Sequence record: SRR22947727_5974
Length of the DNA stretch: 32,525 bases
Reading direction: 5' to 3' (one strand)
Shown here: piece after piece, positions 1 to 27,696 of the stretch
How the letters are laid out: the number at the start of each line of letters is the position of its first letter
How positions within the stretch are numbered: position 1 is the stretch's first letter
The notes under the pieces: generated by a model
Database searches by the model: none
The model's input: only the letters and a program-made list of their open reading frames with translations
What the model was told of the DNA's origin: nothing
Position numbers and translations under genes: made by a program

Positions 1-16
1 AACAGGAATTGACTGA
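1..16 (+). CDS. 3' end of an upstream gene (reads ...T-G-I-D-stop), possibly F420H2:NADP+ oxidoreductase (NpdG/Fno)
   Basis: aca gga att gac tga at 2-16 ends 5 nt before the cofE start. NpdG proteins typically end in GIRITG-x. Only four codons are visible. Confidence 0.2.
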
Positions 17-21
17 CCGCT

Positions 22-795
22 GTGTTGCCGGGCGCTTTACAACTTAGCCCCCTGCCTGATTTTCCCGCGGTCGTCGCGGGCGATGTGTTGGCAGATTTGG
101 TCATCACAGCAACCCGCCGAAGCGGTCATCAGCTGCAAGACGGCGCGGTGTTGGTCATTGCGCAAAAAGTAGTGTCCAAGGCAGAGGGTCGCTTGGTTCA
201 TCTGCAAGACGTTATCGTCACGGCAGAGGCGCGGACCTTAGCCAAAGCGACGCAAAAAGATCCTCGGCTTGTCACCTTGATTCTGCAGGAGTCACGCGCC
301 GTGATTCGCACGCGGCCGGGCTTAATCATTAGCGAGCATCGTACCGGGCATATTCTTGCCAATGCGGGTATCGATTCATCTAATGTGGGGGCGGAGGGTC
401 AGAGTGAGTCGGTATTGCTGTGGCCTGAAGACCCCGATGCCAGCGCACGCACACTGTCGCTTCAGCTCTCGGCCGCACTGAATAGGAGAGTGCCCGTGCT
501 GATCAATGACAGTTTGGGGCGTCCATGGCGAATGGGCACGGTCGGCTTTGCGATCGGTACCTTTGGATTTGAGCCGGTCTGGGATCAAATTGGTGAAAAA
601 GACTTAGATGGCAGAATAATGCGGGTAACGGCACCGGCTATCGCCGATGCCTTAGCGGCAGCTGCCTCACTGGTACAGGGTGAGACAAATCAGGGTCGGC
701 CTGCGGTGTGGGTCGAGGGATGCGATTTGCGCCACGATGATCAGGTCAACACGAGCGTGCTGTTGCGGCCAGCGGAACAGGATTTGTTTCGATGA
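22..795 (+). CDS. cofE: Coenzyme F420-0:L-glutamate ligase (single domain, no C-terminal nitroreductase)
   Basis: Motifs AQKVVSKAEGR, ANAGIDSSN, LLWPEDPDASA, DSLGRPWRMG, DALAAAASLVQGE. 257 aa. Stop overlaps the cofD ATG (ATGA). Confidence 0.95.
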   Translation: MLPGALQLSPLPDFPAVVAGDVLADLVITATRRSGHQLQDGAVLVIAQKVVSKAEGRLVHLQDVIVTAEARTLAKATQKDPRLVTLILQESRAVIRTRPGLIISEHRTGHILANAGIDSSNVGAEGQSESVLLWPEDPDASARTLSLQLSAALNRRVPVLINDSLGRPWRMGTVGFAIGTFGFEPVWDQIGEKDLDGRIMRVTAPAIADALAAAASLVQGETNQGRPAVWVEGCDLRHDDQVNTSVLLRPAEQDLFR

Positions 796-1790
796 CTAGC
801 GGGTCGATTCGAGCTCACGGGCAAACCGACATACTGCTCCTAAGTGGCGGCGGCGGAGGTGCTCGACTGGCCGCGGGGTTGCACGCCGCGACCGGAGGTG
901 AGCACTTTAGCGTGGTGACCAATACCGGCGACGATTTTGAGCATCTGGGACTGATGATCTGTCCCGACACGGACAGCGTCCTCTATGCGCTATCGCAGCA
1001 AATTGACCCGGTGCGAGGGTGGGGCCGTGAAGGGGAGAGCTGGCAGGTTTTTGACGAGCTAACCCAGCTTGGGGGGCCTGACTGGTTTCAGTTAGGAGAC
1101 AAAGATCTGGCGCTCCATCTTATTCGCGCAGCGCTCTTGGCCGAGGGTAGGAGCCTCTCTGAGGTCACAGCGATATTGGCGCGTCGATTAGGCGTAGCGT
1201 CAGCGGCGTCGATTATGCCGGCCACCGAGGATCGCGTGCGAACCCGCGTGATGACTTCCCAAGGCGAGATGGCGTTTCAAGAGTATTTTGTAAAGCACCG
1301 GTGTGAACCTCAATTAACGGCGGTGCGCTACGAGGGGATCGCGGCAGCCAAACCTTCTCCAAGTTTGGTTGGCTTGTTAGCGGGCGCTGCGAGTCGAAGT
1401 ATCGACGTCGTGCTCGGCCCGTCTAATCCTTTTTTAAGTCTTGCGCCGATTTTAGACTTGCCAGGTATGGCCGACTTACTGCGTGAGCGAGCCCGACGAG
1501 TCATTGCTGTCTCGCCGATCGTGGCGGGGCAGGCCTTAAAAGGCCCCGCCGCGAAAATCATGTCCGAACTGGGATTGTCGGTGTCGGCGGCAGGGTGGAT
1601 GGAGTGGATGGCTGATCGCTATCCAGAACTGATCGATGTATGGGTGTGGGATGAACGAGATCATGCGCTCGCTGATGCGACTCGGATAGCGCACCCGAAC
1701 ATTGTCGTCACGGACACGATCATGAGTGACCGCGAGCGTGCGCAGCAATTCGCTGAGTGGATTCTGGGTGTGAGTGGCGATGGGGACTGA
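792..1790 (+). CDS. cofD: 2-phospho-L-lactate/PEP transferase (CofD/FbiA)
   Basis: LSGGGGGARL, VTNTGDDF, ICPDTDSVLY, WFQLGDKDLALH, FQEYFV, GPSNPFLS, VSPIVAGQALKGPAAK. Confidence 0.95.
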   Translation: MTSGSIRAHGQTDILLLSGGGGGARLAAGLHAATGGEHFSVVTNTGDDFEHLGLMICPDTDSVLYALSQQIDPVRGWGREGESWQVFDELTQLGGPDWFQLGDKDLALHLIRAALLAEGRSLSEVTAILARRLGVASAASIMPATEDRVRTRVMTSQGEMAFQEYFVKHRCEPQLTAVRYEGIAAAKPSPSLVGLLAGAASRSIDVVLGPSNPFLSLAPILDLPGMADLLRERARRVIAVSPIVAGQALKGPAAKIMSELGLSVSAAGWMEWMADRYPELIDVWVWDERDHALADATRIAHPNIVVTDTIMSDRERAQQFAEWILGVSGDGD

Positions 1791-2421
1791 GGCGATTGTC
1801 CCGCTGAAGTCCGTGTCCTCGACAAAGCAGCGGTTAACGGCTGCGCTCTCTGAGGTTGCTCGGCAGTCACTCGTGAAGGCGATGGCAGAAGACGTGCTAT
1901 CACAATTGCGATTGCATCCGGGTATCGATTCGGTGTCGATTGTGTGCGGCGACGGATGGTCGGCGGAGCAGTTTGCAGACCCGACGACTCGCGTCTGGCA
2001 TGAATCGACCCTAGGGGTTAATGGCCTTAACGGTGTCCTCACCGCGGCGCTGAAAAAAGCGGAGAGCGATAGCGTGTTGCTGATCCACGGGGATCTCCCT
2101 TTTTTGCAGCGAGACGACATTACAACGGTGCTCTCTGCGGCCTCGCGAGTCGACGTCGTGCTGTGCTCGGATCAATCCGGCGTCGGCACGAATGCCTTGT
2201 TGATGCAGCGTGAAGAGCCGATGGTGCTGTCTTTCGGTGAGCGGAGCTTTGCTCGCCACTGCGAAACCGTTACCGCGCTCGGCGCCTCCTGGGAAGCGCT
2301 GCAAAGCGCGGGCCTGGCAACGGATATTGATACGCCAGAGGACCTAGCGCTGCTCGGGCCGGAAGCAGTTGGTTTGGGGATGAGGACAGCGGCGTGGTGT
2401 CGAGATAATCGGTGGCGATAG
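1780..2421 (+). CDS. cofC: 2-phospho-L-lactate/PEP guanylyltransferase (CofC/FbiD)
   Basis: IVPLK..TKQRL, GLN, HGDLP, GTNAL, FGERSFARH, DIDTPEDL. ATG at 1780 (or GTG 1774) overlaps the end of cofD. Confidence 0.92.
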   Translation: MGTEAIVPLKSVSSTKQRLTAALSEVARQSLVKAMAEDVLSQLRLHPGIDSVSIVCGDGWSAEQFADPTTRVWHESTLGVNGLNGVLTAALKKAESDSVLLIHGDLPFLQRDDITTVLSAASRVDVVLCSDQSGVGTNALLMQREEPMVLSFGERSFARHCETVTALGASWEALQSAGLATDIDTPEDLALLGPEAVGLGMRTAAWCRDNRWR

Positions 2422-2596: not shown

Positions 2597-5014
2597 ATGG
2601 GGGCAGATCAGATTGAGCGGTATGCCGCGCCGGCAGTCGAGGTGCGGAAGGTAGGCGTTGTTGTTCACGACACCGACGCCGAGCTTGCGCGCGCGCGAAT
2701 CTTACGCGATCAGGGTTATGGCGCTCGCATCACCTATAGCCCAAAAGTGTTTATCCCTGTGACGCAGTTGTGCCGGGATGTTTGCCACTACTGTACGTTT
2801 GCAAAAACCCCCTCTCAGCTAGACAACCTGTACTTACCAATCGATGAGATTCTCGAGACTGTGCGCTCGGGTGCGCGAGCCGGCTGTCGAGAAGTGCTGC
2901 TGACGCTCGGCGAGAAGCCGGAGCTACGCTATCGAGTCGCCAAGGAGTGGCTCGCGGATGCGGGATATGCGAGCACCGTCGATTATGTCGCCGCTGTGGC
3001 AGCGCGAATCGTCACGGAGACTGGTCTGTTACCGCACGTTAATGCGGGCACGATGAGTCGAAGCGAATTGACCCAACTCAGGCCTTATGCGGCATCGATG
3101 GGTCTCATGTTAGAGAGCGGTGCAGCTCGATTAGGCGAGAAGGGTGGCCCCCATTACGGTTCGCCCGACAAGGCGCCATGGCGACGGTGGTTAACGCTGG
3201 CCAGAGCCGGCGCGCTGCGAATACCCATGACGACGGGCTTGCTAGTGGGAATTGGTGAGACACGGGAAGAGCGGTTACAGGATTTACGAGGTATTCGCCG
3301 TTTGCATGAGCGTTACGGTCATATTCAGGAAGTGATCATCCAAAATTTCTGTGCCAAGGCCGGGACAAAAATGGCGGGCACTGACAATCTGAATCTCACT
3401 GAGATGACTTGGACGATCGCGCAGGCGAGGGCGATATTGCCGATTGAGATCAGTATTCAGGCGCCCCCTAATCTTAATGCGGGGCAGCTGGGCCAGCTCA
3501 TCGATGCGGGGATCAATGACTGGGGTGGTGTGTCGCCATTGACCCCGGATTATGTGAACCCTGAGGCGCCGTGGCCGAGTTTATCTGTTTTGCGTGCAGC
3601 GACCGCTGAGCGCGGTAAGCAGCTGTTGCCCAGATTGACGGTTTATCCACGTTATCTGAGCGAGCCGGAGTGGTTGGATCCCGCAATCCGGCCCGCTGCG
3701 CTCGAACTGGCTGACGCCGATGGCTTGGCGAGAGAGGATGACTGGCGGGCGGGAGCGTCCACTAAACCACCGGTCGCTTATTGGCGATCGAACGAGAGCG
3801 AGATCTCATCCCCAGTCGCCGAAGCGATAGAAGCGTGCTTGCGTGGCGAGGAAGTAGATGACGGTGCGATGTTGGCTTTATTTTCTGCGCGCGGTGCCGA
3901 GGTTGATGCGGTGTGTTCGGCAGCGGATACGCTCCGGCAGACGCAAGTGGGCGATGAAGTCACCTATGTGGTGAATCGCAATATTAACTACACCAATGTG
4001 TGCCAATACAGCTGCAGGTTTTGTGCATTTTCAAAGGGTGGCGGTGACGTGGAAGTCGCGCGTACGGCCTATGATATTGATGCGGCAGAGCTGCACCGTC
4101 GGGTTCAAGAAGCGGCGTCGCTGGGTGCCACTGAGGTGTGTTTGCAAGGCGGTATCCACCCGGATTACACCGGCCAGACCTACCTCGATATTGTGCGTAC
4201 GGTGAGAGAGGCTGCCCCCGATATCCATATTCATGCGTTTTCGCCTCTCGAAATAGACCAAGGCGCGTCAACCCTGCAACTGCCGGTCGCTCGTTTCTTA
4301 GAGATGCTCAGGGACGCCGGCTTGCAGTCTATGCCGGGTACTGCGGCGGAGGTGCTCGATGAGCGTGTGCGCGCGATTTTGTGTCCTGACAAGGTGACGT
4401 CTCAGCGATGGCTCGACATTATGGAGCAAGCGCACGGCGTCGGTTTGCGTAGTACCGCGACGATCATGTTTGGTCACGTTGATGATGCACGCTCATGGGT
4501 GCGGCACTGGCGCCAAGTGTTGGCGTTGCAACAACGAACCCAGGGTTTTACCGAGGTGGTGCCGCTCCCTTTCGTCAGCGAGGGCGCCCCAATTTATCGT
4601 CGCGGCGGGTCGAGGCCCGGTCCGACATGGCGTGAGGCGCTGTTAATGCACGCGGTGCTGCGGCTGACCTTGGGACACGCGATTCCCAATGTTCAGGCTT
4701 CCTGGGTGAAGCTCGGTCAGCAGGGCGCGCTTCAGATGCTGTCGGCTGGCGCCAATGATTTGGGCGGCGTATTGATTAACGAGAGCATTACCCGAGCGGC
4801 TGGCGCGGCGCATGGCCAAGTGTGGACGCCCTCGGATATGCAGGAGGCGATTAGTGGCTGCAATCGCTCTCCTCGCCAGAGGACGACGCTATATGGTCGG
4901 GTCAGTGACAGTCCGGCAGTTTCGTGGGGAACAACGCCGGTCCGATGGACGGACAACACACCGGCGGGTCGCAAGGAGAATCCGAAATACGTGACGCGGG
5001 CAATCTCGCTTTAA
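2597..5014 (+). CDS. fbiC: Bifunctional FO synthase (CofG-CofH fusion), two radical SAM domains
   Basis: ITYSPKVFIP-CRDVCHYC (CofG half) and YVVNRNINYTNVCQYSCRFC (CofH half); also NDWGGVSP, DYVNPEAPWP, PGTAAEVL, QASWVKLG, GANDLGG. 805 aa. Confidence 0.96.
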   Translation: MGADQIERYAAPAVEVRKVGVVVHDTDAELARARILRDQGYGARITYSPKVFIPVTQLCRDVCHYCTFAKTPSQLDNLYLPIDEILETVRSGARAGCREVLLTLGEKPELRYRVAKEWLADAGYASTVDYVAAVAARIVTETGLLPHVNAGTMSRSELTQLRPYAASMGLMLESGAARLGEKGGPHYGSPDKAPWRRWLTLARAGALRIPMTTGLLVGIGETREERLQDLRGIRRLHERYGHIQEVIIQNFCAKAGTKMAGTDNLNLTEMTWTIAQARAILPIEISIQAPPNLNAGQLGQLIDAGINDWGGVSPLTPDYVNPEAPWPSLSVLRAATAERGKQLLPRLTVYPRYLSEPEWLDPAIRPAALELADADGLAREDDWRAGASTKPPVAYWRSNESEISSPVAEAIEACLRGEEVDDGAMLALFSARGAEVDAVCSAADTLRQTQVGDEVTYVVNRNINYTNVCQYSCRFCAFSKGGGDVEVARTAYDIDAAELHRRVQEAASLGATEVCLQGGIHPDYTGQTYLDIVRTVREAAPDIHIHAFSPLEIDQGASTLQLPVARFLEMLRDAGLQSMPGTAAEVLDERVRAILCPDKVTSQRWLDIMEQAHGVGLRSTATIMFGHVDDARSWVRHWRQVLALQQRTQGFTEVVPLPFVSEGAPIYRRGGSRPGPTWREALLMHAVLRLTLGHAIPNVQASWVKLGQQGALQMLSAGANDLGGVLINESITRAAGAAHGQVWTPSDMQEAISGCNRSPRQRTTLYGRVSDSPAVSWGTTPVRWTDNTPAGRKENPKYVTRAISL

Positions 5015-5159
5015 GACTAACAGTCTTGACGTCAGGGGATCCATCTGGCTTTCTGGCAACGGGCTGCTGATCCGCAAGTTTTGGTGACAAGAGGTCAATC
5101 AGTAGCGGGTGCAGAGTAATCAGTGAGCGCAGAGAGAGCCGAGAGAGGGGTATTTTCCA

Positions 5160-5630
5160 GTGACCGATGAACTAGCAGCAAAGCTCGATCGCCTTGAGAG
5201 TCGGGGCCTGATTGAAGATCTTGTCAGCAATTATTGTCATGGTTTTGACAAGCGCGATTACGATCGTTTTCTCTCGATCTGGTGGGATGACTGCGTTTGG
5301 AAAATAGGCCCCCCGTTTGGCGATTTTAGCGGGCACGAGGGCATTCGTCAGGCGATCCACGAGGTGTTGTGGCCCGCATGGGCGCAGTCCCAGCATGTGA
5401 CCTCTAATTTAGTGGTGGAATTTACGTCGCCCGACTCCGCCTCTGGGATCTGCGATGTGGACTGCATGGGGCTATTGAGCGACAGCACTGACGCGACCTT
5501 CGTCGGTGCGACTTATCGAGATCGCTTTGAGCGTCGTGAGGGTGTTTGGAAAATGCGTGAGCGCGAGGTGGTGATTCACCACTTTAATGGGTTCCCGGGT
5601 ACTCAATTGACCAAGCCAGAAGCGATATAG
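5160..5630 (+). CDS. NTF2/SnoaL-like protein, LinA (gamma-HCH dehydrochlorinase)-like lyase
   Basis: 156 aa. The blocks LDRL.SR..I.DL, DKR, SIWWDD..W.I, VLWP, H...NL..EF.S.D...GI.DV and D..ERR.GVWK...R match my recollection of LinA. GTG start preceded by purine-rich GAGGGG. Confidence 0.8.
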   Translation: MTDELAAKLDRLESRGLIEDLVSNYCHGFDKRDYDRFLSIWWDDCVWKIGPPFGDFSGHEGIRQAIHEVLWPAWAQSQHVTSNLVVEFTSPDSASGICDVDCMGLLSDSTDATFVGATYRDRFERREGVWKMREREVVIHHFNGFPGTQLTKPEAI

Positions 5631-5718
5631 AATTGCGGTTGATATGCCACATACAGTGGTGATGGGTTGATGTTCTAAGAGTGAACCGATAACGAGTGAC
5701 ACGATTGAGGAAGGAAAG

Positions 5719-6564
5719 ATGGATAAAAGATTAGCAAACAAAGTGGCTGTGATTACTGGCGCGGCAAGTGGTATCGGCGCTGCGACGGCCAAAACTTTCG
5801 TCGAGCACGGTGCACGGGTGGTATTGGGGGATATTCAAGATGAGCTGGGTGCTTCTCTGGCGGAGGCGCTGGGTGGTGCTGACCATGCGACGTTTTGTCA
5901 CTGTGATGTCACGGATGAGCAGCAAGTTGAGGCGATGGTAGAAACCGCGGTATCGCAATATGGTGGTATCGACATCATGTTCAATTGCGCGGGGATCGTG
6001 GGGGCTGTCGGCCCCATGTCGACAACACCTGCGGCAGAGTGGAAGTTAACCATCGATATCATGCTTAATGGCGTGTTCTACGGTATGAAGCATGCCAGCC
6101 GCCACATGAAGGCCGCTGGATCGGGCTCCATTATCAGCATGTCGAGCACTGCTGGGGTAATGGGCGGACTGGGCCCTCACGCTTACGCGGCTGCCAAGCA
6201 TGCTGTGGTGGGTATGACCAAAAATCTGGCTGCCGAGGTGGGATCCTGTGGTGTGCGGGTAAACTGTATTGCACCCGCGGGTATGGCTACTCCGATGGTG
6301 GCCGATGTCATCACCGGTAATCACCAAAATCTTGATGAGACGATTGCGGCACTCGCCGAGGGTTCCCCGCTTAAGGGGCGCGCTGGGTTGGCGCAAGATG
6401 TCGCCAATGCGGCACTCTGGCTGGCCAGCGATGAGTCGGGGTACACCAGTGGTCTGACCTTAACGGTTGACGCAGGGGCGACCACTGGGTCAACCGCTGC
6501 AGCACCGGCATTTGCCGATTATGAGCCGATGAAGCGCGAAGCGGGCCGGACTGGACTAGAGTAA
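5719..6564 (+). CDS. Classical SDR oxidoreductase, NAD-preferring, secoisolariciresinol-dehydrogenase-like subgroup
   Basis: TGAASGIG, acidic GDI after beta2, FNCAGI, SS..G, GPHAYAAAKHAVVG (YxxxK), VRVNCIAP. Strong RBS gaggaagg. Confidence 0.9.
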   Translation: MDKRLANKVAVITGAASGIGAATAKTFVEHGARVVLGDIQDELGASLAEALGGADHATFCHCDVTDEQQVEAMVETAVSQYGGIDIMFNCAGIVGAVGPMSTTPAAEWKLTIDIMLNGVFYGMKHASRHMKAAGSGSIISMSSTAGVMGGLGPHAYAAAKHAVVGMTKNLAAEVGSCGVRVNCIAPAGMATPMVADVITGNHQNLDETIAALAEGSPLKGRAGLAQDVANAALWLASDESGYTSGLTLTVDAGATTGSTAAAPAFADYEPMKREAGRTGLE

Positions 6565-6570
6565 ACGCGT

Positions 6571-8631
6571 CTAGCGGTTGAGTCCGAAAACATACAGCCC
6601 CTGGCCGTCTGGGGGCTGATAAATATCGGGAAAGATCACCGCAGTCAGCGCTCTAAACACACCAATACCGGTTGGGATTGCTACGAACTGCTGGCCGTTA
6701 GCTTGATAGGTGATGGGGTAGCCATGAGCAGGTGCGGGGAGACGAGTCGACCATAGCTTCTTGCCCGTGTTGATATCAAAGGCCTGAAAATACCGATCTA
6801 AATCACCAATAAACAGGACCTCTCCGTCGGTGGAAACTGCGCCACTTAAAAATAGAGCGGGTTGTTCTATACGCCATTTTATGGTCATGGTACGCACGTC
6901 AATGGCCAGCAGTGCACCCGCCTTATCTTCTTTACCCGGCATAGGGTAGGTCGCAACATCGGCACCATAGCCGCCGCCGCCGGGGCCGAGATCCACCTCG
7001 CGGGGTGTCATGTCAGAGCACAGTTGGTGCACCGGCAGCAATAAAAGATGTGTCGACGCATCATAGGTGCCCGATTGCCAGTTATGGCCACCATAGATAC
7101 CGGGGCAGGCAGTGTAAGTATCGCCAATCTGCGCACCGGCAATGTCCGATCGGTAGGCGAGTGTCCCCGTTTTTCTATCGACCTCGAAAATGGTTTGATC
7201 CATGGTATCGAGCAGATCGATGTAGTCGCCCGTCTCTCGGTTCAGCTTCCACAAGATGCCATCTTTGCCAACGGTTAAGACTGTCGGTACCCCGTCAATA
7301 TCAGCAACAATGCGCTCAAACCCGACTTCCATATCGATCGTTTCCCCGGGAATGTGTTGGAAGTACCACATCAGGTCACCGGTTTTCGGTTTTAGCGCGA
7401 GGGTCGAATTGGTATAGAGCGCGGCGTCCTCAACCGACATTCCCCGGCTGGGTGCGGCCCATGGCTTGGGTTGAGAGGTGCCAAAGTAAATCAGATCTAG
7501 CGCAGGATCATAGGACCCGGTAATCCAAATGTCACCGCCGCCACGTCGATCAGGTGCCACATTGCCCCACGTGGCGTATTCGGGCGTACCGGGCAGCGCT
7601 AGCGTGGAGGTGCGCCACAATTCTTCTCCGGTGTCAGGATCGTGGCCGGTGATAAAGCAGCCATCTTCCGTGAACAGTTCGCATCCATTAATCCCACTGA
7701 CCACCACGCCATTGGCAACGATGGGTCCCGCGCTATGGGTAAAGGCTTCTCGGTAGTCTGCTTTTTGGGTGCGCCAAATTTGCTGCCCTGTTACCGCGTC
7801 CACCGCGACGAGCGCTGCGTCATAGGTCGCAAGGAATAGCTTGTCACCCCACAAAGCGATATTGCGGGTCGGTCCCCCCAGCATTTTTGATGCCGGCGGG
7901 AAGGCGTATTGATACTCCCAAATCAGTTCCCCAGAGTCCGCCTCTATCGCCTGAATTTTGTTGTTGGAGTGTGTCAGAAACATCACGCCATCTCGCACAA
8001 GCGGCGTCGGCTGATTGCTGCCAGTATGCATTGCCATGGACCACTTAAGACCGAGTCTGCTCACCGTCGAGGTGTTAATCGCTGTCAGCGGGCTGTGCCC
8101 ATGGCCATCCAGGGTGCGTCGCCAATTGAGCCAATCGCCGTCATCGGGCTGATTCAATTCCGCGGTACTAACAGGGCGAAAATTGGCCACGGTTTTGGCG
8201 GCATACTCACCTGCGTTACGCGCAAGATCCATGACGCTCCCAGCGCCCGAGAACGCGACCGCGTCAGGTGCCTCGGCGGCACTCAGGTCAGCGACTGACG
8301 TCCTCATCAGCGAATCTGCGGGTAGGCGTGATTGTGCAATAACGTGCTGCAGAATTTCAGCGTGTTGAGCAGGGGAGAGCGTGTCTGCCTGGCCGGGAGG
8401 CATCTCACTCATTTGATAAGTCAACAGCGCTTGTGCGGGTTGATGCGCCCATTTTGTCGTGAAGGCGGGACCTGACAGCGAAGCGCCGTGAGCAGATCCT
8501 CGGAGGGAAACCGCGTGACAGGTCGCACAGTGCTCAGCGTAAAGGGCTTCTCCCTGCTCTGTGGCACTGCCGAGGGAGCTGACAAATGCGCTGACAACGA
8601 GCATCAGCTGGAGTGTTCGCGTTTTCATCAT
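6571..8631 (-). CDS. Periplasmic PQQ-dependent dehydrogenase with an N-terminal cytochrome c domain
   Basis: Signal peptide, CATCH heme motif (aa 35-39) and MPPG axial Met. Then PQQ beta-propeller motifs DWLNWRR, SPLTAIN, repeated xDxxTGxxxW, GGHNW and YPITY..NG.QFV. Confidence 0.85.
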   Translation of the reverse strand: MMKTRTLQLMLVVSAFVSSLGSATEQGEALYAEHCATCHAVSLRGSAHGASLSGPAFTTKWAHQPAQALLTYQMSEMPPGQADTLSPAQHAEILQHVIAQSRLPADSLMRTSVADLSAAEAPDAVAFSGAGSVMDLARNAGEYAAKTVANFRPVSTAELNQPDDGDWLNWRRTLDGHGHSPLTAINTSTVSRLGLKWSMAMHTGSNQPTPLVRDGVMFLTHSNNKIQAIEADSGELIWEYQYAFPPASKMLGGPTRNIALWGDKLFLATYDAALVAVDAVTGQQIWRTQKADYREAFTHSAGPIVANGVVVSGINGCELFTEDGCFITGHDPDTGEELWRTSTLALPGTPEYATWGNVAPDRRGGGDIWITGSYDPALDLIYFGTSQPKPWAAPSRGMSVEDAALYTNSTLALKPKTGDLMWYFQHIPGETIDMEVGFERIVADIDGVPTVLTVGKDGILWKLNRETGDYIDLLDTMDQTIFEVDRKTGTLAYRSDIAGAQIGDTYTACPGIYGGHNWQSGTYDASTHLLLLPVHQLCSDMTPREVDLGPGGGGYGADVATYPMPGKEDKAGALLAIDVRTMTIKWRIEQPALFLSGAVSTDGEVLFIGDLDRYFQAFDINTGKKLWSTRLPAPAHGYPITYQANGQQFVAIPTGIGVFRALTAVIFPDIYQPPDGQGLYVFGLNR

Positions 8632-8711: not shown

Positions 8712-10004
8712 CTATGTCGTTAAAAAATGTCCATACTTCTCGAGAGCTGCTTTTCGCAGTGTCGGCGTGTGGTAGCTGGGGAACAACGCATCATGCGGTT
8801 CATAGTGTCTCAGCACGGCTTTGGCCACGGCAATTTTATGCACCTCGGTGGGGCCATCGACCACTCCCAGCTCGGGAATGTTGGCCCACATGTGGGCCAG
8901 TGGTGTCTCGTCGGAACTGCCTAAGCTGCCGTGTAAATGCATCGCTCTCGAGACGATCTCTAGTAGCACTTTGGGTGTTGCCGCTTTAATGGCAGCGATC
9001 TCTTTACGCACTTCGCGGTTGTACTCCTTGTGCTTGTCGATCAGCCACGCGGTGTAGAGCACATGAAGGCGATACTGCATCATCATGGTGTACGCGTCGG
9101 CGATTTTTTCCTGTGTCATTTGCTTGTCTGCCAGCAATTCACCCTTGGTACGACGGCTGACTGCTCGCTCGCACATCATATCGAGTGCCTTACGAATCAC
9201 ACCCACGGTCCGCATGGCATGGTGGACTCGTCCGCCACCGAGTCGTGTTTGAGCCACATGGAAGCCTTGCCCTTCATCCCCGAGTAAGTTGTCGGCGGGA
9301 ACGCGACAGTTCTTAAAAGAAATATAGGCGTGAACGCCGTCACCTTGCTCCACATAAGGACCGACTGCAGAGTTGCGGATGATGTCCATCCCAGGTGTGC
9401 CTTGCTCGACTAAAAAGATCGATGCGCCCTGGTGGATCGGCGCTTCGGTATCGGTCACCACCATCACGAGGAGAAACGCGGAAAAGCGGGCATGGGAGGC
9501 AAACCATTTTTCGCCATTAATCACCCATTCGTTTCCGTCACGCGTGGCGGTGCATAAAAACTCGCCCGGGTCCGCACCGGCTTGCGGCTCTGTCATGGAG
9601 TAGCAGGAGGCGATTTCCGCATTGAGCAGGGGCTGTAGGTATCGGGTTTTTTGCTCTGGCGTGCCGAATTTGGCGAGGATCTCTGCATTGCCAGAATCGG
9701 GCGCCTGACACCCAAAGACACTGGGTCCGAAACGACTTCGGCCTAAAATCTCATTCATAAGGCCCAAGTTGACTTGTCCGTATCCTTGGCCGCCGAGCTC
9801 GGGTTCGAGGTGGCAGGCCCACAGGCGCTTTTCTTTGACAATCTCTCTCAGTGGCTCCATTGCTTTAAAAGCGGGCGATTTCGGATCCCAGGGATCGCCG
9901 GGCTCGCGAAAGACTAAATCAAGGGGCTCAATTTCTTCACGCGTGAACGTGTCTACCCAATCTAATGACGCTTGAAATTCGGGATCTGTTTCAAAAGACC
10001 ACAC
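8712..10004 (-). CDS. Acyl-CoA dehydrogenase family protein, ACAD10/11 / LvaC-like subfamily
   Basis: GCQAPDSGNAEIL, SMTEPQAGAD, WVINGEKWF, RLGGGRVHHAMR, VDGPTEVHK. GTG start at 10004 chosen because AAGGAGGT (minus strand 10019-10012) lies 7 nt upstream. Confidence 0.9.
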   Translation of the reverse strand: MWSFETDPEFQASLDWVDTFTREEIEPLDLVFREPGDPWDPKSPAFKAMEPLREIVKEKRLWACHLEPELGGQGYGQVNLGLMNEILGRSRFGPSVFGCQAPDSGNAEILAKFGTPEQKTRYLQPLLNAEIASCYSMTEPQAGADPGEFLCTATRDGNEWVINGEKWFASHARFSAFLLVMVVTDTEAPIHQGASIFLVEQGTPGMDIIRNSAVGPYVEQGDGVHAYISFKNCRVPADNLLGDEGQGFHVAQTRLGGGRVHHAMRTVGVIRKALDMMCERAVSRRTKGELLADKQMTQEKIADAYTMMMQYRLHVLYTAWLIDKHKEYNREVRKEIAAIKAATPKVLLEIVSRAMHLHGSLGSSDETPLAHMWANIPELGVVDGPTEVHKIAVAKAVLRHYEPHDALFPSYHTPTLRKAALEKYGHFLTT

Positions 10005-10079
10005 AGCCTTTACCTCCTTGGAGTTGAGATGTAATTGACAGGTAATAGGGCCAAGCACGCCACTTTTTTGAGTGAGCGT

Positions 10080-10121
10080 CGGCACTAGGGTTGCCAAATT
10101 GAGCCGCTAGTTTAAACTTGC
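10080..10121. promoter_or_regulatory. Divergent control region: sigma54-like GG-N10-GC element and adjacent palindromic operator candidate
   Basis: cGGCAC-TAGGG-TTGC at 10080-10094. GCTAGTTTAAACTTGC at 10106-10121 is a 16-bp palindrome with one mismatched pair. Confidence 0.4.
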
Positions 10122-10200
10122 TAGACGCAAACAAGCAACGCGACTGATAAAAAATTAGCAGTTTGTGGCGTCTTTGGATGCCCTATGGGGGAATTGTAGT

Positions 10201-10929
10201 ATGTCTGGCGGTAAAGTGTGGGTGGTGACCGGGGCGTCACGGGGGATCGGTGCGGCGATCGCGCGGGTGGCGTCGGAGAGCGGAGACCGTGTTGCCTTAA
10301 TGGCACGGGGTGAGTCGGTTCTCACGTTAGCGGGTGAGCTTGGCCCTGACACGATAGGGGTGCAATGTGATGTGGCAAATCCAGAGGCCGTTGTTGCCGC
10401 AATGGATGCCGTCATCGCACGATTTGGCCGGGTCGATACTTTGGTCAATAACGCCGGGGTGCATCGAGGCGGTAAAGTAAAGCGCTTAGCTGACGAGGCC
10501 TGGCACGAGGTATTGCAAGTTAACTTGACGGGCGCTATGACCATGACGAGAGCGGCATTAGCTCACATGGAGGCGGGTAGCGCGATTATTAATGTGGGTG
10601 CCGTTGTGGGTTTCCGCGGTTTTCCCGGTGATGCCGCCTATGCGTCCTCTAAGGCGGGTCTGGCAGGACTGACAAAGGCTTTGGCAATTGAGCTAGCCCC
10701 CAAGGATATTACAGCCAACCTGGTGATACCCGGACTGGTGTTGACGGAAATGACGTCAGGGCTCACTGAAGCGTCGCTTGAAGCGATGAACAAACAAATT
10801 CCCATGCGACGTTTTGCAGAAGAGCGCGAGATCGCCGAGGTGGTTTATTGGGTCAGCCAAAGTCGATATATGACGGGCGCCTGTGTCCCGGTAGATGGGG
10901 GTCTTCTCTCCAGCTTTGGAGTCACGTGA
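10201..10929 (+). CDS. FabG-like SDR ketoreductase (LvaD-like position)
   Basis: VVTGASRGIG, basic MAR after beta2 (NADP preference), VNNAG, YASSK. ATG at 10201 preferred over 10165. Confidence 0.88.
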   Translation: MSGGKVWVVTGASRGIGAAIARVASESGDRVALMARGESVLTLAGELGPDTIGVQCDVANPEAVVAAMDAVIARFGRVDTLVNNAGVHRGGKVKRLADEAWHEVLQVNLTGAMTMTRAALAHMEAGSAIINVGAVVGFRGFPGDAAYASSKAGLAGLTKALAIELAPKDITANLVIPGLVLTEMTSGLTEASLEAMNKQIPMRRFAEEREIAEVVYWVSQSRYMTGACVPVDGGLLSSFGVT

Positions 10930-11954
10930 TGACGTCAGTACCCGCAGAGCAGCTGGCTTCGTGGTTGGATGCTCACTTAGGTTGGGAGAATACTCGGTTT
11001 TGCGCCGCCCTCAGCGGGGGTAATTCTAATTTGACTTGGCAGTTTCAGTCGGGCGATCGAGCCTGCGTGGTGCGGACGCCGCCGGCTAATGACATCTCCC
11101 CCACGTCGGCAAGAGGTATCCAGCGTGAGGCGCAAATGCTGCAAGCAATCGCCGGGTTCGACGTGAGAGCGCCCGCCGTATTGGCTTGGTGCGACGACGC
11201 CTCAGTGATTGGTCGATCTTTTTTAGTGCAGGAATTTATCGATGGCAGAGCGCTGACCGATACCCTACCCGATCGTTATCCGGACACCATCGAGACAGTG
11301 AATCGGTTGGGCATTGATCTGATAGATCAACTGGCGGTGCTACATAAAGTCCCCACTGATTTACCCGCCTTAGCGAAGCTAGGTCGTCCAGAACGCTTTC
11401 TGGAGCGACAAATTGAGCGTTGGTTATCCGTGCGGAGGGAGCATTGTGTGCGCGATCTGCCAGCGCTGTTTGCCCTCGGCGAGTGGTTAGGTGCACATGT
11501 GCCCGAGGCGGGAGCGCCTGCGGTGATTCATGGGGACTATCATCTCGACAACACGCTGGCATCACCTGATGAGCCAGCCATTTTAGCGATCATAGACTGG
11601 GAGTTGGCGACAGTTGGCGACCCCTATATGGATGTGGCGTTAATGCTGATGTTTTGGGGTGAATATCGGACCCAGCAGCCGCCTGCTTTTACGGCATTGC
11701 AGTCTGTCTCGCGTCGTTCCGGTGTGATCAGTCGTCGGGAATTAGCCGGGCGCTGGGCTGAAGCGGTGGGCCGGCCGTTGCACCATATGAACTTTTACAT
11801 GGCTTTGGCCTTTTGGCGTCTCGCCGCCATTATTGAAGGCGCTTATGGGCTCTATTTGGCGGGCCAGTTAGACACCGATTACGCACGTGGGCTGGAGTAC
11901 GATGTGCCCGCCTTGCTTGCCGAGGCTGAGCGGGCTGCCGGAGGCGATTGGTGA
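10929..11954 (+). CDS. APH-family phosphotransferase, ACAD10/11 N-terminal kinase / LvaA-like
   Basis: LSGGNSNLT, VVRTPP, REA..L, HGDYHLDN, IDWELATVGDP, WRLAAIIEG. ATG overlaps the SDR stop (TGATG). Confidence 0.9.
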   Translation: MTSVPAEQLASWLDAHLGWENTRFCAALSGGNSNLTWQFQSGDRACVVRTPPANDISPTSARGIQREAQMLQAIAGFDVRAPAVLAWCDDASVIGRSFLVQEFIDGRALTDTLPDRYPDTIETVNRLGIDLIDQLAVLHKVPTDLPALAKLGRPERFLERQIERWLSVRREHCVRDLPALFALGEWLGAHVPEAGAPAVIHGDYHLDNTLASPDEPAILAIIDWELATVGDPYMDVALMLMFWGEYRTQQPPAFTALQSVSRRSGVISRRELAGRWAEAVGRPLHHMNFYMALAFWRLAAIIEGAYGLYLAGQLDTDYARGLEYDVPALLAEAERAAGGDW

Positions 11955-11959
11955 CCGCG

Positions 11960-13582
11960 ATGTTGAGTACGATGATGAATACGCCGCTCGGCGTGACGAC
12001 ATTGCATCGTTTTGGCGCGCGTCATTTTGTCAGTAGCCGCGTCGGAGATTACGACGGCGAGCGAATCCACTGGCGCCGCTACGACGAGATCGACGCCGAT
12101 AGCGCCCGCCTCGCCAATGGCTTGCGAGGGTTAGGGCTCTCAGAGGGTGATCGAGTCGGCACCTTCATGTGGAATAGCTCACGGCATCTTGAGGCCTACC
12201 TGGCGGTACCCTCAATGGGGGCGGTGCTGCATACCGTAAACTGCCGATTGTCTCCAGAGCACATGGCTTACATTATCAACCATGCAGGGGACCGATTCCT
12301 GATCGTGGACAGTCGTCTGGCATCCGTCTTGTTGCCAGTGCTACCCCTGATATCCAAGGTCGAGTACCTCATTGTCACCGGTGATGCCGCGAGTTTGGAT
12401 GATCCCCGGGTGGTCGCTTATGACGCGCTCGTTGCCGATAGTCCGGCTGACTATCCTTGGCCAGAACCGACAGAAAATGCGGCCGCCGGTATTTGCTACA
12501 CGAGCGGCACCACGGGTAATCCAAAAGGCGTTGCCTACAGTCAGCGCACCACCTACCTGCATGCACTGGCTTCTCGCGCCGTTGACAGTTTTGCAGTGCA
12601 AGAGCGCGATGTCATTTTAATGTTGCCCTCGATGTTCCATGCGAATGCCTGGGGTTTTCCTTACAGTGGATGGATGTCCGGCGCAGATATGGTCATGCCA
12701 GGCCCCTTTCTTCAAGGGCAACACCTGCGAACAATGATCGAGCAGACTCGGCCAACCCTGACGGCAATGGTGCCCACACTGCTGGGAGATTTGTTGCGCG
12801 CAGACGAACAAAAGCCTCTCGATCTAGCGTGTTTTCGCGCAATCGTATCCGGTGGATCGGCGGTGCCGTCCTCGATGATCGAGGCGGTGCGAGACCGCTG
12901 GGGCGTCCCAGTGGTTCAAGGTTGGGGGATGACTGAAACGAGTCCTCTGTGTGTCTTGTCTCACCCCCCTAAAGATTTAGAGGGCGAGTCTGAAACCTTT
13001 TGGCGGCTAAAAAGTGGTCGACCGGTGCCCGGCATTGAGGTGCGTGTCGTCGATGATGAAGGTCACTGTTTGGCGCAGGATGGCCTCGCAGTAGGTGAGT
13101 TACAGCTCCGCGGAGCGTGGGTTACCGGAGAGTATCTCGACACGGATAGTGATGCCTTTGCGCCCGATGGCTGGTTGCGCACGGGCGATGTGGGAATGAT
13201 TGATGCGAGAGGGTATGTACAGTTGACCGATCGCACTAAGGATGTCATTAAGTCAGGCGGGGAATGGATTTCCTCAGTCGACTTAGAAGATGTTTTACTG
13301 AAACATACTGCGGTCATTGAAGTGGCCGTGATTGCGATGCCCGATGAGCGGTGGCAAGAGCGGCCACTGGCGGTCATTGTCAGTCAGCATGAGGGCGAGG
13401 CGACTGATCTTCTGTCAGAGTTGCGTCAGTTTTTGGCGGAGAGAGTGGCGAAGTTTTGGATTCCTGAGTATTGGTGTCTGCGAGAGTCGATTCCCAAGAC
13501 CAGCGTAGGTAAGATTGACAAAAAAGGGTTACGAGAGGCGCTCGCGTCTGACGAGCTCGTGGTGCAGCGGCAGGATAGCTAG
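11960..13582 (+). CDS. Fatty-acid--CoA ligase (AlkK/DmdB-like AMP-binding family)
   Basis: MLSTMM..PL N-terminus, YTSGTTGNPKG, MFHANAWG, QGWGMTE, GWLRTGD, DRTKDVIKSGGEWISS, PKTSVGKIDK. Alternative GTG start at 11951. Confidence 0.92.
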   Translation: MLSTMMNTPLGVTTLHRFGARHFVSSRVGDYDGERIHWRRYDEIDADSARLANGLRGLGLSEGDRVGTFMWNSSRHLEAYLAVPSMGAVLHTVNCRLSPEHMAYIINHAGDRFLIVDSRLASVLLPVLPLISKVEYLIVTGDAASLDDPRVVAYDALVADSPADYPWPEPTENAAAGICYTSGTTGNPKGVAYSQRTTYLHALASRAVDSFAVQERDVILMLPSMFHANAWGFPYSGWMSGADMVMPGPFLQGQHLRTMIEQTRPTLTAMVPTLLGDLLRADEQKPLDLACFRAIVSGGSAVPSSMIEAVRDRWGVPVVQGWGMTETSPLCVLSHPPKDLEGESETFWRLKSGRPVPGIEVRVVDDEGHCLAQDGLAVGELQLRGAWVTGEYLDTDSDAFAPDGWLRTGDVGMIDARGYVQLTDRTKDVIKSGGEWISSVDLEDVLLKHTAVIEVAVIAMPDERWQERPLAVIVSQHEGEATDLLSELRQFLAERVAKFWIPEYWCLRESIPKTSVGKIDKKGLREALASDELVVQRQDS

Positions 13583-13593: not shown

Positions 13594-14226
13594 GTGACTG
13601 AGGGGACAGTGAGGGAGGCGGCGTCGATCTCGACGCAGGCAGAGCGGAGCGCATTGTCCGATCAAAAAATGTTCGAGGTGGCCATTGAGTTAGTCAATGA
13701 GCGCGGCACTGCCAAAACCACGTTAAAAGATATTGGGGAGCAGGCGGGTTACAGCAGAGGCCTGGCGAGTTATCGATTTGGATCAAAGGACGGGTTGTGG
13801 ATGGAGCTGTTCGCTCGCTTCGATGACTTGTGGAAAGAGCATATATCGAGCCACCTCTCGGACAAGCGGGGACTTGCGGCGCTGACCGCGGCAATGGAGG
13901 CACAGCGCGATATTTTTTCGCGAGAGTCGGGTTACCTCAGGGCGATGTATATTTTGTGGTACGAGTCCCTGGGTAGAGAGTCGGATATTCGGGCGAGTCT
14001 TGCTCGACACCATGTGATTTATCGACGTGACGTTCAGCAGTGGGTCGAGGAGGGACAGGCCGCAGGCGATATTAAAGCGGATGTTGATGCGGCGCACTTC
14101 GCAACGGGGTATTGCTCGATGATGTTCGGGACTATTTATCAATGGGTGGTGGCGCCAGATGCCATCGATATCGATGCATTTTTTGCACGCTTCGCGGAAA
14201 CGACGGTGCGGACAATTACGGATTAG
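13594..14226 (+). CDS. TetR/AcrR family transcriptional regulator
   Basis: N-terminal HTH: AIELVNERG..KTTLKDIGEQAGYSRGLASYRFGSKDGL. 210 aa. Confidence 0.92.
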   Translation: MTEGTVREAASISTQAERSALSDQKMFEVAIELVNERGTAKTTLKDIGEQAGYSRGLASYRFGSKDGLWMELFARFDDLWKEHISSHLSDKRGLAALTAAMEAQRDIFSRESGYLRAMYILWYESLGRESDIRASLARHHVIYRRDVQQWVEEGQAAGDIKADVDAAHFATGYCSMMFGTIYQWVVAPDAIDIDAFFARFAETTVRTITD

Positions 14227-14241
14227 AAGGGGGGATGAGTG

Positions 14242-15045
14242 ATGGCTAGATTGGCAGTCGACGGGACAAAAAGCATTTACTTTGAAGATTTGGGTGGCGC
14301 TGGCCGGCCGCTCATCATGGTGCATGGTTGGGGTATGGATAACCGCTGTTGGGACGGCGTGATTTTGCCATTACTCGCGGCGGGACATCGCGTGATCACA
14401 ACAGATCATCGAGGCTGTGGCCGATCTGATCATGACTTTGCAGACTTAAGCATCGCGGCGAATGCCGCTGACGTCGTTCAGCTCGTTGATCATTTGGGAT
14501 TGAATGACGTGGTCGTCAATGGGTGGTCTTTAGGCGGCGCTGTAGCGACCCATGCGGCAAGCTTGCTGGGTGGCCGCTGTGCAGGGCTGATCCTTACTGC
14601 CGGCGCGAGTCCGATCTACACGCAAAAATCCGACCTGCCAATTGGCGGTATGCCGGCTGACGTGGAGGGTAATGTGGCCGCCATGAATGATGACCGCGTG
14701 AATTTTTTAACGATGCTAGCGACCGCCATTTGTGCCAAGCCACCCACTGATGCAGTACTGGCTTGGATGGCGGGGGCTTTTATTAATTCTAGCGCCCGCG
14801 TGTCGTCGACATTGGGCGAGCTCGCACATTTGGACCAACGTGACATGATGATGGCGCTGGAAACGCCTATTCTTTCTGTCATCTGTGGGCAGGATGGTTT
14901 TGTGTCCCCCGACATTTCGCGCTGGGTCGCAGAGAACCATCCGCGGGCAACGGGCGTAGAGTTCTCTGAAAGCGGGCATGCCCCTTTTATCGAAGCACGC
15001 GAGGGTTATTTAGCAGCCCTCAATGATTTCATTAGTCACCTCTGA
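14242..15045 (+). CDS. Alpha/beta serine hydrolase (arylesterase / non-heme haloperoxidase / lactonase-like)
   Basis: HGW oxyanion motif, DHRGCGRSD, GWSLGG nucleophile elbow, GQDGFV acid, SGHAPF His. Start at ATG 14242 or GTG 14239. Confidence 0.88.
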   Translation: MARLAVDGTKSIYFEDLGGAGRPLIMVHGWGMDNRCWDGVILPLLAAGHRVITTDHRGCGRSDHDFADLSIAANAADVVQLVDHLGLNDVVVNGWSLGGAVATHAASLLGGRCAGLILTAGASPIYTQKSDLPIGGMPADVEGNVAAMNDDRVNFLTMLATAICAKPPTDAVLAWMAGAFINSSARVSSTLGELAHLDQRDMMMALETPILSVICGQDGFVSPDISRWVAENHPRATGVEFSESGHAPFIEAREGYLAALNDFISHL

Positions 15046-18089: not shown

Positions 18090-18828
18090 CTAACAAGCAG
18101 ACAGTCCCGTCTGACTCTTACCTAGGATGAGTGCGTGGATATCATGCGTCCCTTCATAGGTGTTCACGACCTCCAAATTCACCATGTGACGCATCACAGA
18201 GCAGTCGTCCGAGATGCCATTACCGCCCAGCATATCTCGCGCAGAGCGGGCAATATCGAGCGCCTCACCACACGAGTTTCGCTTGATGAGGCTGATGAGG
18301 TCGGGTGAGATAGCGCCTGCGGAGCGTAATCGTCCAATTTGCAGGCAGCCCTGCAGTGCCAGCCCAATTGCTGTCTGCATATCGGCAAGTTTTACTTGCA
18401 CCAATTGTTTAGAGACGAGCGGGGCGCCAAACTGAGTGCGTTCTAGGGTGTCATCGCGCGCGACATGCCAGCAGTCCACAGCTGCGCCCAAAACCCCCAA
18501 GCGATGCCGTAACGGGCATTGTTGAGTCAACCAAAGGGGCCTTTGAGTCCCTCTACATTGGGCAAATTATTTTCGGTAGGCACGAACACATCATCCATAA
18601 CAATTTCGCCCGTGATCGACGCTCTCAGCGCCAATTTACCGTCATCTCCGCAAAGAGACTCGCATCGGTCTGCTCGTGACGAAAAGCATTTTGCACTCTT
18701 GGCGCCGGAGAGCCTTGGGCAAACTGCTGGGCACTGTCTCGCACCATGCGCTGTTCTTCCATGAGCTGCGCATTGAGCTCAAAGGGATCTTGCCAGTTAA
18801 GTGGCATCCAGTGCGTTCTTGCGGTCAT
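18090..18828 (-). pseudogene. gcdH: Glutaryl-CoA dehydrogenase pseudogene
   Basis: N-terminal [20 protein letters not shown]...[10 protein letters not shown] joins out of frame at about 18643/18642 to [21 protein letters not shown]...GLKGPFG. There is a TGA at 18529-18527 and a one-base loss in the G-run at 18498-18494. The C-terminus [23 protein letters not shown]...[15 protein letters not shown] is intact. Confidence 0.9.
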
Positions 18829-25341: not shown

Positions 25342-25342
25342 T

Positions 25343-26878: not shown

Positions 26879-26910
26879 TACCAAAATCAAATCGTTAGAG
26901 GAGTGAAGTA

Positions 26911-27684: not shown

Positions 27685-27696
27685 AGGAGAGCAACC

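Follow-up and report, generated by a model that had tools for sequence, protein, structure and literature searches.

A LinA homologue from a marine gene island belongs to a conserved SnoaL_4 family and may be a Tyr-Asp-His dehydratase or isomerase

The origin and the natural substrate of LinA, the dehydrochlorinase of lindane degradation, are to our knowledge an open question in the evolution of pesticide-degrading enzymes. Scytalone dehydratase uses an Asp-His dyad for the syn-elimination of water from a hydroxy-ketone. The substrate cavity of LinA has been described as lined by K20 and F113, and the LinA-type2 protein as fully active with N115 and L129 (PMC3507683). In BaiE, Tyr30 (helix 1) is described to polarise the 3-oxo group with Tyr126 assisting, while His83 (strand 3) takes the proton and protonates the leaving hydroxyl and Asp35 (helix 1) tunes His83 (PMC11110704). 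Here we describe a LinA-like gene at positions 5160 to 5630 (plus strand) of SRR22947727_5974, a stretch of 32,525 nucleotides that was analysed as a whole and is referred to here as the window. We found that this gene, rather than serving lindane degradation, is an unexceptional member of a SnoaL_4 subfamily that is large and uncharacterised. From homology, fold, residue conservation and gene context we infer, with middling confidence, that its product works without a cofactor as a Tyr-Asp-His dehydratase or isomerase, on an intermediate of catabolism that bears a carbonyl, and is no dehydrochlorinase.

The gene begins with a GTG codon, has a purine-rich stretch approximately 12 bases 5' of this start and encodes 156 amino acids, with no obvious signal peptide when the first 20 residues are read. 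Residues 10-135 match positions 1-125 of the 126 positions of the Pfam SnoaL_4 profile (PF13577; 86.6 bits against a cut-off of 24, E 1.8e-24), which places the protein, with a full domain above the gathering score, in the SnoaL_4/NTF2-like superfamily; a scan of the protein with NCBIfam returned no model above its cut-off. We propose that it is a cytoplasmic, cofactor-free enzyme of the SnoaL_4/NTF2 fold. A phmmer search of the PDB sequences placed LinA entries on top (5kvb, 1.4e-31; 3s5c, 3e-31; 3a76, 1.3e-29), followed by an uncharacterised Novosphingobium protein (3b8l, 2e-5), and no other characterised or solved protein is nearly as close as LinA. As references we used a UT26-type LinA translated from pTK4 of Sphingobium sp. 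TKS and LinA1 from pSRL1 of S. indicum B90A. BLASTP against the UT26-type sequence gave 56 identities over 145 positions (39%) with one gap and an E value of 7e-37, in agreement with the roughly 55 identities over about 145 positions, with one gap, that a first-pass annotation of this DNA had counted.

The likeness extends to the fold. An AlphaFold2 model built from 25 family sequences (mean predicted local distance difference test score, pLDDT, 96.5) superposes on chain A of LinA 3A76, a comparison that the first-pass annotation had proposed, with a Z score of 24.2, a root-mean-square deviation of 0.9 Å over 147 residues and Foldseek TM scores of 0.91/0.96, and thus has the alpha+beta barrel of LinA. 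The next unrelated structures follow at Z of approximately 18.9, and BaiE (4leh) at 17.8. Prediction of the protein in three copies scored 0.93 with a best control of 0.00, the runs sharing at least 91% of contacts at a partner pLDDT of at least 90. In calibration, the mark was reached by 20 of 30 proteins solved as one-chain pairs and by 1 of 23 solved as single chains, and the pass may reflect memory of, or likeness to, solved LinA trimers. The K26-D93' salt bridge described for LinA (PMC3507683), an interface pair, is kept in the window protein as K31/D99. Overall, the modelled protein is probably a homotrimer, as is LinA.

We aligned the proteins with MAFFT and found that LinA D25, H73, W42, D115 and R129 correspond to D30, H79, W47, D121 and R135 of the window protein, and that five pocket positions differ (K20 to Y25, L21 to C26, F68 to W74, L96 to C102 and F113 to Y119). 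All of these equivalences had been proposed in the first-pass annotation, as had the likeness of G28, C102 and Y119 to LinA1 of B90A, where the states are G23, C96 and Y113. The close superposition on LinA suggests that the D30-H79 dyad of the model has the geometry of the LinA dyad. The proteins thus have their length class, fold, Asp-His dyad, equivalents of W42, D115 and R129 and predicted trimer in common, while the pocket is not that of LinA. Where LinA sequences have K/Q20, L21, V24, F/Y68, C/T71, L/C96, I109 and F/Y113, the window protein has Y25, C26, F29, W74, S77, C102, V115 and Y119, and only its states at positions 96 and 113 match those of LinA1/type2. The differences include a tyrosine in place of K/Q20, a tyrosine in place of the F113 of the UT26-type sequence, and C26, F29, W74, S77 and C102.

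We scored the LinA pocket positions over 305 aligned sequences, among which 86 SnoaL_4 representatives lie outside the group formed by LinA and the family of the window protein. These outside representatives keep D25 in 84, H73 in 83, D115 in 76 and R129 in 79 cases, and the family keeps the four sites in every member save 1 of 119 metagenome relatives, which has a tyrosine at D25. The Asp/His/Asp/Arg set therefore marks this entire branch within SnoaL_4 and not the dehydrochlorinases. The catalytic set that the first-pass annotation called intact is indeed present, dyad included, but it is generic rather than specific to LinA.

The two pocket tyrosines tell more about LinA than about the window protein. 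Tyrosine occupies both the K20 and the F113 site in all 199 family members scored: 73 locus proteins from gammaproteobacteria and others, 5 from sphingomonads and 2 from Rhodobiaceae, and 119 metagenome relatives. Both tyrosines are also found in the two proteins of a type encoded on pISP0, a conjugative plasmid of the hexachlorocyclohexane (HCH) degrader Sphingomonas sp. MM-1, and in 78 and 73, respectively, of the 86 outside representatives. LinA alone has K or Q at position 20, and F at position 113 in the UT26-type sequence. The states Y25, C26, W74, C102 and Y119 are invariant within the family and common outside it, and in a family alignment (A2) Y25, D30, H79, Y119, D121 and R135 are all invariant. 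Our data indicate that Y25/C26/W74/C102/Y119 would be the ancestral state of the pocket and that of LinA the derived one; the pocket differences listed in the first-pass annotation turn out to be the rule in the family of the window protein. Since the pocket tyrosines are strictly conserved and were replaced in LinA, they argue for a carbonyl-dependent reaction.

We next considered where LinA stands among its relatives. A search of 5.8 billion proteins with LinA returned 36 matches, all of them LinA variants at least 64% identical over the covered part (the lowest near-full-length match at 74%), and the family of the window protein lies outside this tight cluster; the search needs shared 5-residue words and does not return relatives at 39-45% identity, so intermediates may exist. 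Two metagenome- or PCR-derived LinA variants, P0276 and P0277 (82% and 73% identical to LinA), have V or H at D25 and Q or L at position 20, and from these residues may be inactive or work differently. Several unnamed SnoaL_4 clusters outside the family (P0137, P0138, P0139, P0141 and P0144) are 41-48% identical to the window protein at 118-131 bits, compared to 39% and approximately 112 bits for LinA. LinA is thus its closest characterised relative but not its closest relative, and an identity to LinA no higher than to generic SnoaL_4 proteins, which the first-pass annotation had named as speaking against its case, is in part what we observed.

The same search with the window protein found 234 relatives among 243 candidates, the 120 listed being 59-99% identical. 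A relative in Luminiphilus syltensis NOR5-1B (65% identity) is named 'putative hexachlorocyclohexane dehydrochlorinase 1' by NCBI, while JGI names for relatives include '3-phenylpropionate/cinnamic acid dioxygenase small subunit' and 'ketosteroid isomerase-like'. A scan of one genome per species yielded 161 encoding stretches, and the best 80, which we examined, come mostly from metagenome-assembled genomes (MAGs) and isolates of Luminiphilus and other Halieaceae, with MAGs of Rhodobiaceae, Novosphingobium and Sphingomonas at 58-62% identity. The window is most likely from a Luminiphilus, given that the best match of the protein (94%) is to a Luminiphilus MAG, and the habitat is marine. The family gene is single-copy in 46 of 121 genomes sampled from the Halieaceae (40 of 106 high-quality genomes; 21 of 40 genera) and is therefore widespread in this group, yet not universal. 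Carriers in culture include Luminiphilus syltensis NOR5-1B, Pseudohalioglobus sediminis NY5 and Litorirhabdus singularis.

In a maximum likelihood tree of 57 sequences, LinA groups with a pISP0-type sister clade (support 99/97), the Rhodobiaceae and sphingomonad proteins form an alphaproteobacterial clade (93/93), and the window protein falls in a gammaproteobacterial clade (96/90). Support is low (54/75) for the branching order of the three groups and for the split between them and a few further clusters without a name. Forcing the LinA, alpha and gamma groups into one clade, a constraint defined only after the tree was seen, was not rejected and gave a log-likelihood 4.69 units better than the free-search tree (approximately unbiased test, p-AU 0.628). 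The phylogeny called for by the first-pass annotation thus puts the window protein in a clade separate from LinA while leaving a common grouping acceptable, and the family appears to be among the nearest kin of LinA. The stem branch of LinA is long (0.96 changes per site compared to 0.42 in its sister), which marks LinA as an apparent derived, long-branch outlier and would fit a shift in function along this stem.

BaiE and Hsh2 (4LEH, 4L8O and 4L8P) share with the window protein the SnoaL_4/NTF2 fold (Z 16.4-17.8) and the trimer, predicted for the window protein, at an identity of 16-18%. The spacing from tyrosine to aspartate is 5 in both BaiE and the window protein, and the tyrosine, aspartate and histidine occupy matching secondary-structure positions; in the model, Y25 and D30 lie within helix 1 (residues 3-30) and H79 within the third strand (74-90). 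This spacing and these positions suggest that Y25, D30 and H79 could be the equivalents of BaiE Tyr30, Asp35 and His83. Furthermore, the partner genes of BaiE include a short-chain dehydrogenase/reductase (SDR) and a CoA ligase, as do the genes around the window gene, while no other bai or steroid-nucleus degradation gene was recognised among the annotated genes of the window. Scytalone dehydratase (3STD and 1IDP) has the fold in common with the window protein (Z 15.6-15.7) at 13-15% identity; its carbonyl-polarising tyrosines, Y30 and Y50, are presumably at positions other than those of Y25 and Y119.

These comparisons suggest the following reaction. Tyr25, with Tyr119 assisting, would polarise the carbonyl of the substrate, and His79, tuned by Asp30, would take a proton adjacent or vinylogous to it. 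A beta leaving group, most likely a hydroxyl, would then be expelled, or a double bond would be shifted. Beta-elimination of water would be the first choice, with double-bond isomerisation as its main rival.

The surroundings of the gene bear on what the substrate might be. Upstream on the plus strand lies a complete F420 biosynthesis cluster with cofE, an F420-0:gamma-glutamyl ligase (22..795; Pfam F420_ligase, 5.3e-67), cofD, a 2-phospho-L-lactate transferase (792..1790; Pfam CofD, 8.2e-41), cofC, a guanylyltransferase (1774..2421; Pfam CofC, 2.3e-25), and fbiC, an 805-aa fused CofG/CofH radical-SAM FO synthase (2597..5014; Pfam Radical_SAM in two stretches and CofH_C). An intergenic spacer (5631..5718) separates the LinA-like gene from SDR1 (5719..6564, plus strand, 281 aa). 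The minus strand then carries a pyrroloquinoline quinone (PQQ)-dependent alcohol dehydrogenase with an N-terminal cytochrome c domain (6571..8631; Pfam PQQ and Cytochrome_CBB3; PDB 9m2c, 7.9e-101, 7wmd and 4cvb) and an ACAD11/LvaC-like acyl-CoA dehydrogenase (ACAD; 8712..10097; Pfam ACAD domains; best PDB match ACAD11, 8v3u, 1.9e-74). Back on the plus strand are SDR2, a FabG-like short-chain reductase (10165..10929), an APH-family phosphotransferase resembling the LvaA kinase (10848..11954; Pfam APH, 1.5e-44; its listed TTG start, which overlaps SDR2, is probably too far upstream), an AMP-binding acyl-CoA ligase (11948..13582), a TetR-family regulator (13594..14226), an esterase/lactonase-like alpha/beta-hydrolase (14239..15045) and a luciferase-like (LLM) oxidoreductase (15060..16061). 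The best model of the latter is TIGR03619 (147 bits, cut-off 166.9); its best models are F420-dependent LLM families, all under their cut-offs, and it is possibly F420-dependent. The PDB matches of the hydrolase are esterases, arylesterases and perhydrolases, with no haloalkane dehalogenase among the 60 best sequence matches.

The ordinary chromosomal, catabolic context that had been claimed for the gene, away from IS6100, was confirmed by these neighbours; a tblastn search of the window with the IS6100 transposase gave nothing better than E 0.95. Unlike linA, the window gene is chromosomal and vertically spread through the Halieaceae, with neither IS6100 nor lin genes nearby. Two further observations concern the remainder of the window. 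A 146-aa open reading frame (18090-18530, minus strand) matched only the C-terminal acyl-CoA dehydrogenase domain and may be truncated or mis-started. Farther downstream (25286-28467) is a further block of the lipid or side-chain beta-oxidation type, a row of genes for a thiolase-like protein with the C-terminal domain of TLP1, an SDR and an enoyl-CoA hydratase.

ACAD10/11 are described as an APH-like kinase fused to an ACAD, which convert a 4-hydroxyacyl-CoA via a 4-phospho intermediate to a beta-oxidation substrate (PMC12440821), and LvaA and LvaC, two separate proteins from the levulinate operon of Pseudomonas, as providing an equivalent 4-hydroxyacyl-CoA route (PMC12440821, PMC11342911). 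Given this chemistry and the ACAD11 best PDB match, the ACAD, SDR2, APH and CoA-ligase block (8712-13582) looks, by analogy, like a split 4-oxo/4-hydroxy-acid module.

We compared 80 related loci, counting a gene as present at 40% identity or more over at least half of the reference and identifying the TonB-dependent receptor, a Baeyer-Villiger-type flavin monooxygenase (BVMO) and a second SnoaL_4 protein by Pfam. Of the 72 loci whose downstream sequence spans 1.5 kb or more, 54 have a TonB-dependent receptor gene immediately downstream of the LinA-like gene (8 further loci end sooner). In the 40 loci that extend for 6 kb or more to either side, where flanks of 8 kb limit the counts of distant genes, the receptor is present in 38, SDR1 in 33, the BVMO and the ACAD in 25 each, the second SnoaL_4 (21-25% identical to the window protein) in 24, the PQQ dehydrogenase in 23, cofE and SDR2 in 15 each, fbiC in 14, APH in 8, the hydrolase in 7 and the LLM gene in 5. 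Only one of these 40 loci, L082, is devoid of all of ACAD, SDR1, a LinX-like SDR and the PQQ dehydrogenase.

Gene order varies by lineage, with fbiC directly upstream of the LinA-like gene in the Luminiphilus group and the PQQ dehydrogenase upstream in others. In nine loci (L055, L057, L058, L069, L072, L074, L075, L079 and L083) the LinA-like gene directly follows the ACAD11-like gene in the same orientation. In Rhodobiaceae, the F420 operon (1538-6504 in L057/L058), the ACAD, the LinA-like gene, the LLM gene and the hydrolase are again neighbours. The recurrence of the same set in shuffled order across two classes argues for a functional link, short of proving an operon. Since the F420 operon lies beside the island in Luminiphilus-like and Rhodobiaceae loci and the best models of the LLM protein are F420 families, the gene content also suggests that the island needs F420. 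The position behind an F420 cluster, stressed in the first-pass annotation, is thus real and recurrent, yet not all of the family shares it (fbiC occurs in 30 of 80 loci).

Three very close relatives (L004, L005 and L007) carry an extra 4.4 kb (8471-12876 in L004) between the stop codon of the LinA-like gene and the equivalent of position 5699, where homology to the window resumes within the spacer. This insert encodes a TonB-dependent receptor, a 98-aa open reading frame, an SDR paralogue and a second SnoaL_4 protein. The compact form is common to the window and L008 and is the minority form; a contig that breaks off at 5699, seen in runs X1 and X14, shows that the longer form co-occurs with it in the same samples.

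Taken together, these genes have the look of a marine catabolic pathway, as yet uncharacterised, in which an F420 operon and an LLM oxidoreductase are combined with TonB-dependent uptake and a split ACAD11/APH module. In such a pathway, the SDRs and the PQQ alcohol dehydrogenase would oxidise an imported compound, which in relatives would be opened by the Baeyer-Villiger monooxygenase and the hydrolase, and a levulinate-pathway-like module of CoA ligase, SDR2, APH kinase and ACAD11-like enzyme would feed beta-oxidation. As its substrate the LinA-like protein would take either a hydroxy-ketone that the SDR or PQQ dehydrogenases supply or an acyl-CoA from the ACAD11-like module.

Several observations weigh against a Tyr-Asp-His dehydratase or isomerase in such a pathway. 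The nearest characterised enzyme, LinA, is a dehydrochlorinase, and the match to BaiE is weak in sequence (profile E 3.9e-4 to 8.1e-3). The equivalence of Y25 and BaiE Tyr30 would rest on spacing and secondary-structure position, and the ends of the VIA-align alignment (model 1..154, chain 9..165) leave the register unfixed. Since three genes recurrent in relatives (TonB receptor, second SnoaL_4 and BVMO) are absent from the window, the pathway may be incomplete or differently wired here, and with gene order shuffled any coupling at the operon level would be tentative. RNA evidence is thin. Metatranscriptome contigs from three runs cover fbiC and SDR1 and reach the LinA-like gene only over its last approximately 120 bases, and a single contig (5511-5747, run X15) bridges the end of the gene, for which DNA carry-over into the library is possible; such contigs cannot prove transcription, and the uncovered part of the gene proves nothing. 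A promoter and terminator scan of positions 4800-6800 found no plus-strand site, with counts not above those of shuffled sequences. Searches of the openly accessible literature found no study of marine LinA homologues or of this gene island and no assay of any family member. A search by term of a Halieaceae genomics paper gave no mention of F420, steroid, lindane or hexachlorocyclohexane (PMC10100682), and an ocean organohalide-cycling study has 'dehydrochlorinase' among the gene classes that it counts, with a citation of LinA type 3 (PMC12660952).

A possible though clearly less probable reading is that the protein is not a dehydratase at all but a double-bond isomerase, a tautomerase or another NTF2-type catalyst (e.g., epoxide hydrolase-like). 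One possibility is that it converts 3-enoyl to 2-enoyl compounds, or beta,gamma- to alpha,beta-unsaturated ketones, that arise from the ACAD11-like enzyme or the SDRs, and the position of the LinA-like gene directly behind the ACAD11-like gene in nine loci would suit this role. The same Tyr/Asp/His constellation would serve an enolisation that expels no leaving group, and ketosteroid isomerases have the same fold (Z of approximately 15.5-16), although at 12-13% identity to the window protein. The invariance of D121 and R135 in the family alignment suggests a role beyond the dyad, given that their LinA-type2 counterparts are described as dispensable (PMC3507683). The closest characterised relatives, LinA and BaiE, are however both eliminases, which favours dehydration.

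We consider it unlikely that the protein is a true dehydrohalogenase for natural marine organohalogens, with the activity of LinA as its native role. Its only characterised close relative is LinA, it has the D30/H79 dyad and its habitat is marine, and the pISP0 protein near IS6100 in the HCH degrader MM-1 keeps the Y/C/W/C/Y pocket of the family. Against this, the dyad and the D/R pair are generic in the wider SnoaL_4 group, and the two strictly conserved pocket tyrosines are those of which LinA replaced one or both (K/Q20, and F113 in the UT26-type sequence). No haloalkane-dehalogenase-like or other dehalogenase gene was seen among the annotated island genes, where the hydrolase matches esterases and perhydrolases instead, and the long LinA stem fits a change of function there. 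The first-pass annotation had suggested an ancestral role, the dehydration or dehydrohalogenation of a natural and possibly halogenated marine compound; dehydration before the age of pesticides fits the data better than dehydrochlorination, while nothing points to halogenated substrates. It is very improbable that the protein is non-catalytic, whether as an NTF2 protein that binds a ligand or as the small (beta) subunit of some ring-hydroxylating dioxygenase, gone astray: the dioxygenase label that JGI gives to relatives and a weak Pfam Ring_hydroxyl_B match (E 0.53) speak for it, but this match (10.8 bits) is far under its cut-off of 27, no Rieske alpha subunit was found among the annotated neighbours, so that we rejected the beta-subunit identity, and the invariant polar pocket (Y25, D30, H79, Y119, D121 and R135) is typical of an active site.

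The gene neighbourhood of linA itself was compared with the island. According to published work (PMC4478539), linX resembles linC and goes together with linA but is dispensable for HCH degradation. On pSRL1 of B90A, linX and a second SDR gene precede linA, and IS6100 follows it. We found that the SDR of all five sphingomonad loci (L072, L074, L075, L079 and L083) is 61-62% identical to LinX and 59-61% identical to the second pSRL1 SDR; the gene order in these loci is SDR, ACAD, LinA-like gene, so the LinX-like SDR lies two genes upstream. LinX and the second pSRL1 SDR are also approximately 50% identical to the SDR divergently adjacent to the LinA-like gene in L056 and L064, and an SDR of this kind stands in the corresponding place in L073.

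A comparable arrangement is found on pISP0 of MM-1 (L002, 3463-5971), where IS6100, a 555-bp hypothetical gene, a LinA-like gene and a truncated LinX-like SDR follow one another. The LinA-like protein (WP_015449273; metagenome cluster P0136) is 42% identical to LinA and 47-53% identical to family members, and the truncated SDR is 58% identical to the SDR of the sphingomonad loci. The pISP0-type protein resembles the window protein in its pocket (Y, C, W, C, Y, D and R) and in the SDR gene that follows, and differs in having V rather than F at the LinA-V24 site and in its location on a conjugative plasmid of an HCH degrader, between IS6100 and the truncated SDR. By sequence, this arrangement may represent a second recruitment of the same NTF2-SDR gene pair in an HCH degrader. 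The presence of a LinX-like SDR near the LinA-like gene in the five sphingomonad loci and on pISP0 hints that linX and linA were likewise recruited together as such a pair; the five loci are related MAG loci, which limits this evidence.

Shared ancestry of the whole linA neighbourhood and the island found no support, since the B90A ACAD next to linX is approximately 35% identical to the island ACAD and the TonB-receptor fragment beside linA approximately 26% identical to the island receptors. An EthD-domain protein lies beside linC on pSRL1 (L084, 6179-6865), which is probably a coincidence; the EthD family includes Hsh3, the Sphingobium sp. Chol11 dehydratase of 7-beta-hydroxysteroids (PMC12175502). 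The tree places LinA outside the sphingomonad clade. The GC content of linA (53.5%) and of the pISP0 copy (53.8%) is near that of the window gene (53.9%), compared to 62-64% in sphingomonad family members, a weak hint at most and no evidence of a gammaproteobacterial donor.

We tentatively raise a scenario that we regard as possible but more doubtful than not, namely that linA and linX are relics of an ancestral NTF2-plus-SDR pair from a TonB-receptor-linked island. In this scenario the Halieaceae and sphingomonad family would still carry out the pre-pesticide reaction of LinA, a tyrosine-assisted elimination on a natural hydroxy-ketone, and LinA would have lost its pocket tyrosine or tyrosines on a fast-evolving branch. 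If this were true, the family members, and especially the IS6100-flanked pISP0 copy, would be natural starting points and may have latent dehydrohalogenase activity.

Overall, our data confirm the observation of a LinA homologue and support its first interpretation in part. The surprise is moderate, because this is no gene for lindane degradation and one of its homologues already carries a dehydrochlorinase label in a public genome. The window protein can now be placed in a large, conserved chromosomal family with an apparently ancestral active site and a reproducible gene context. The family thus offers a lead to the function of the ancestors of LinA that is open to ordinary expression, assay and residue-swap experiments, and the window gene serves as a marker of an unstudied marine catabolic island.

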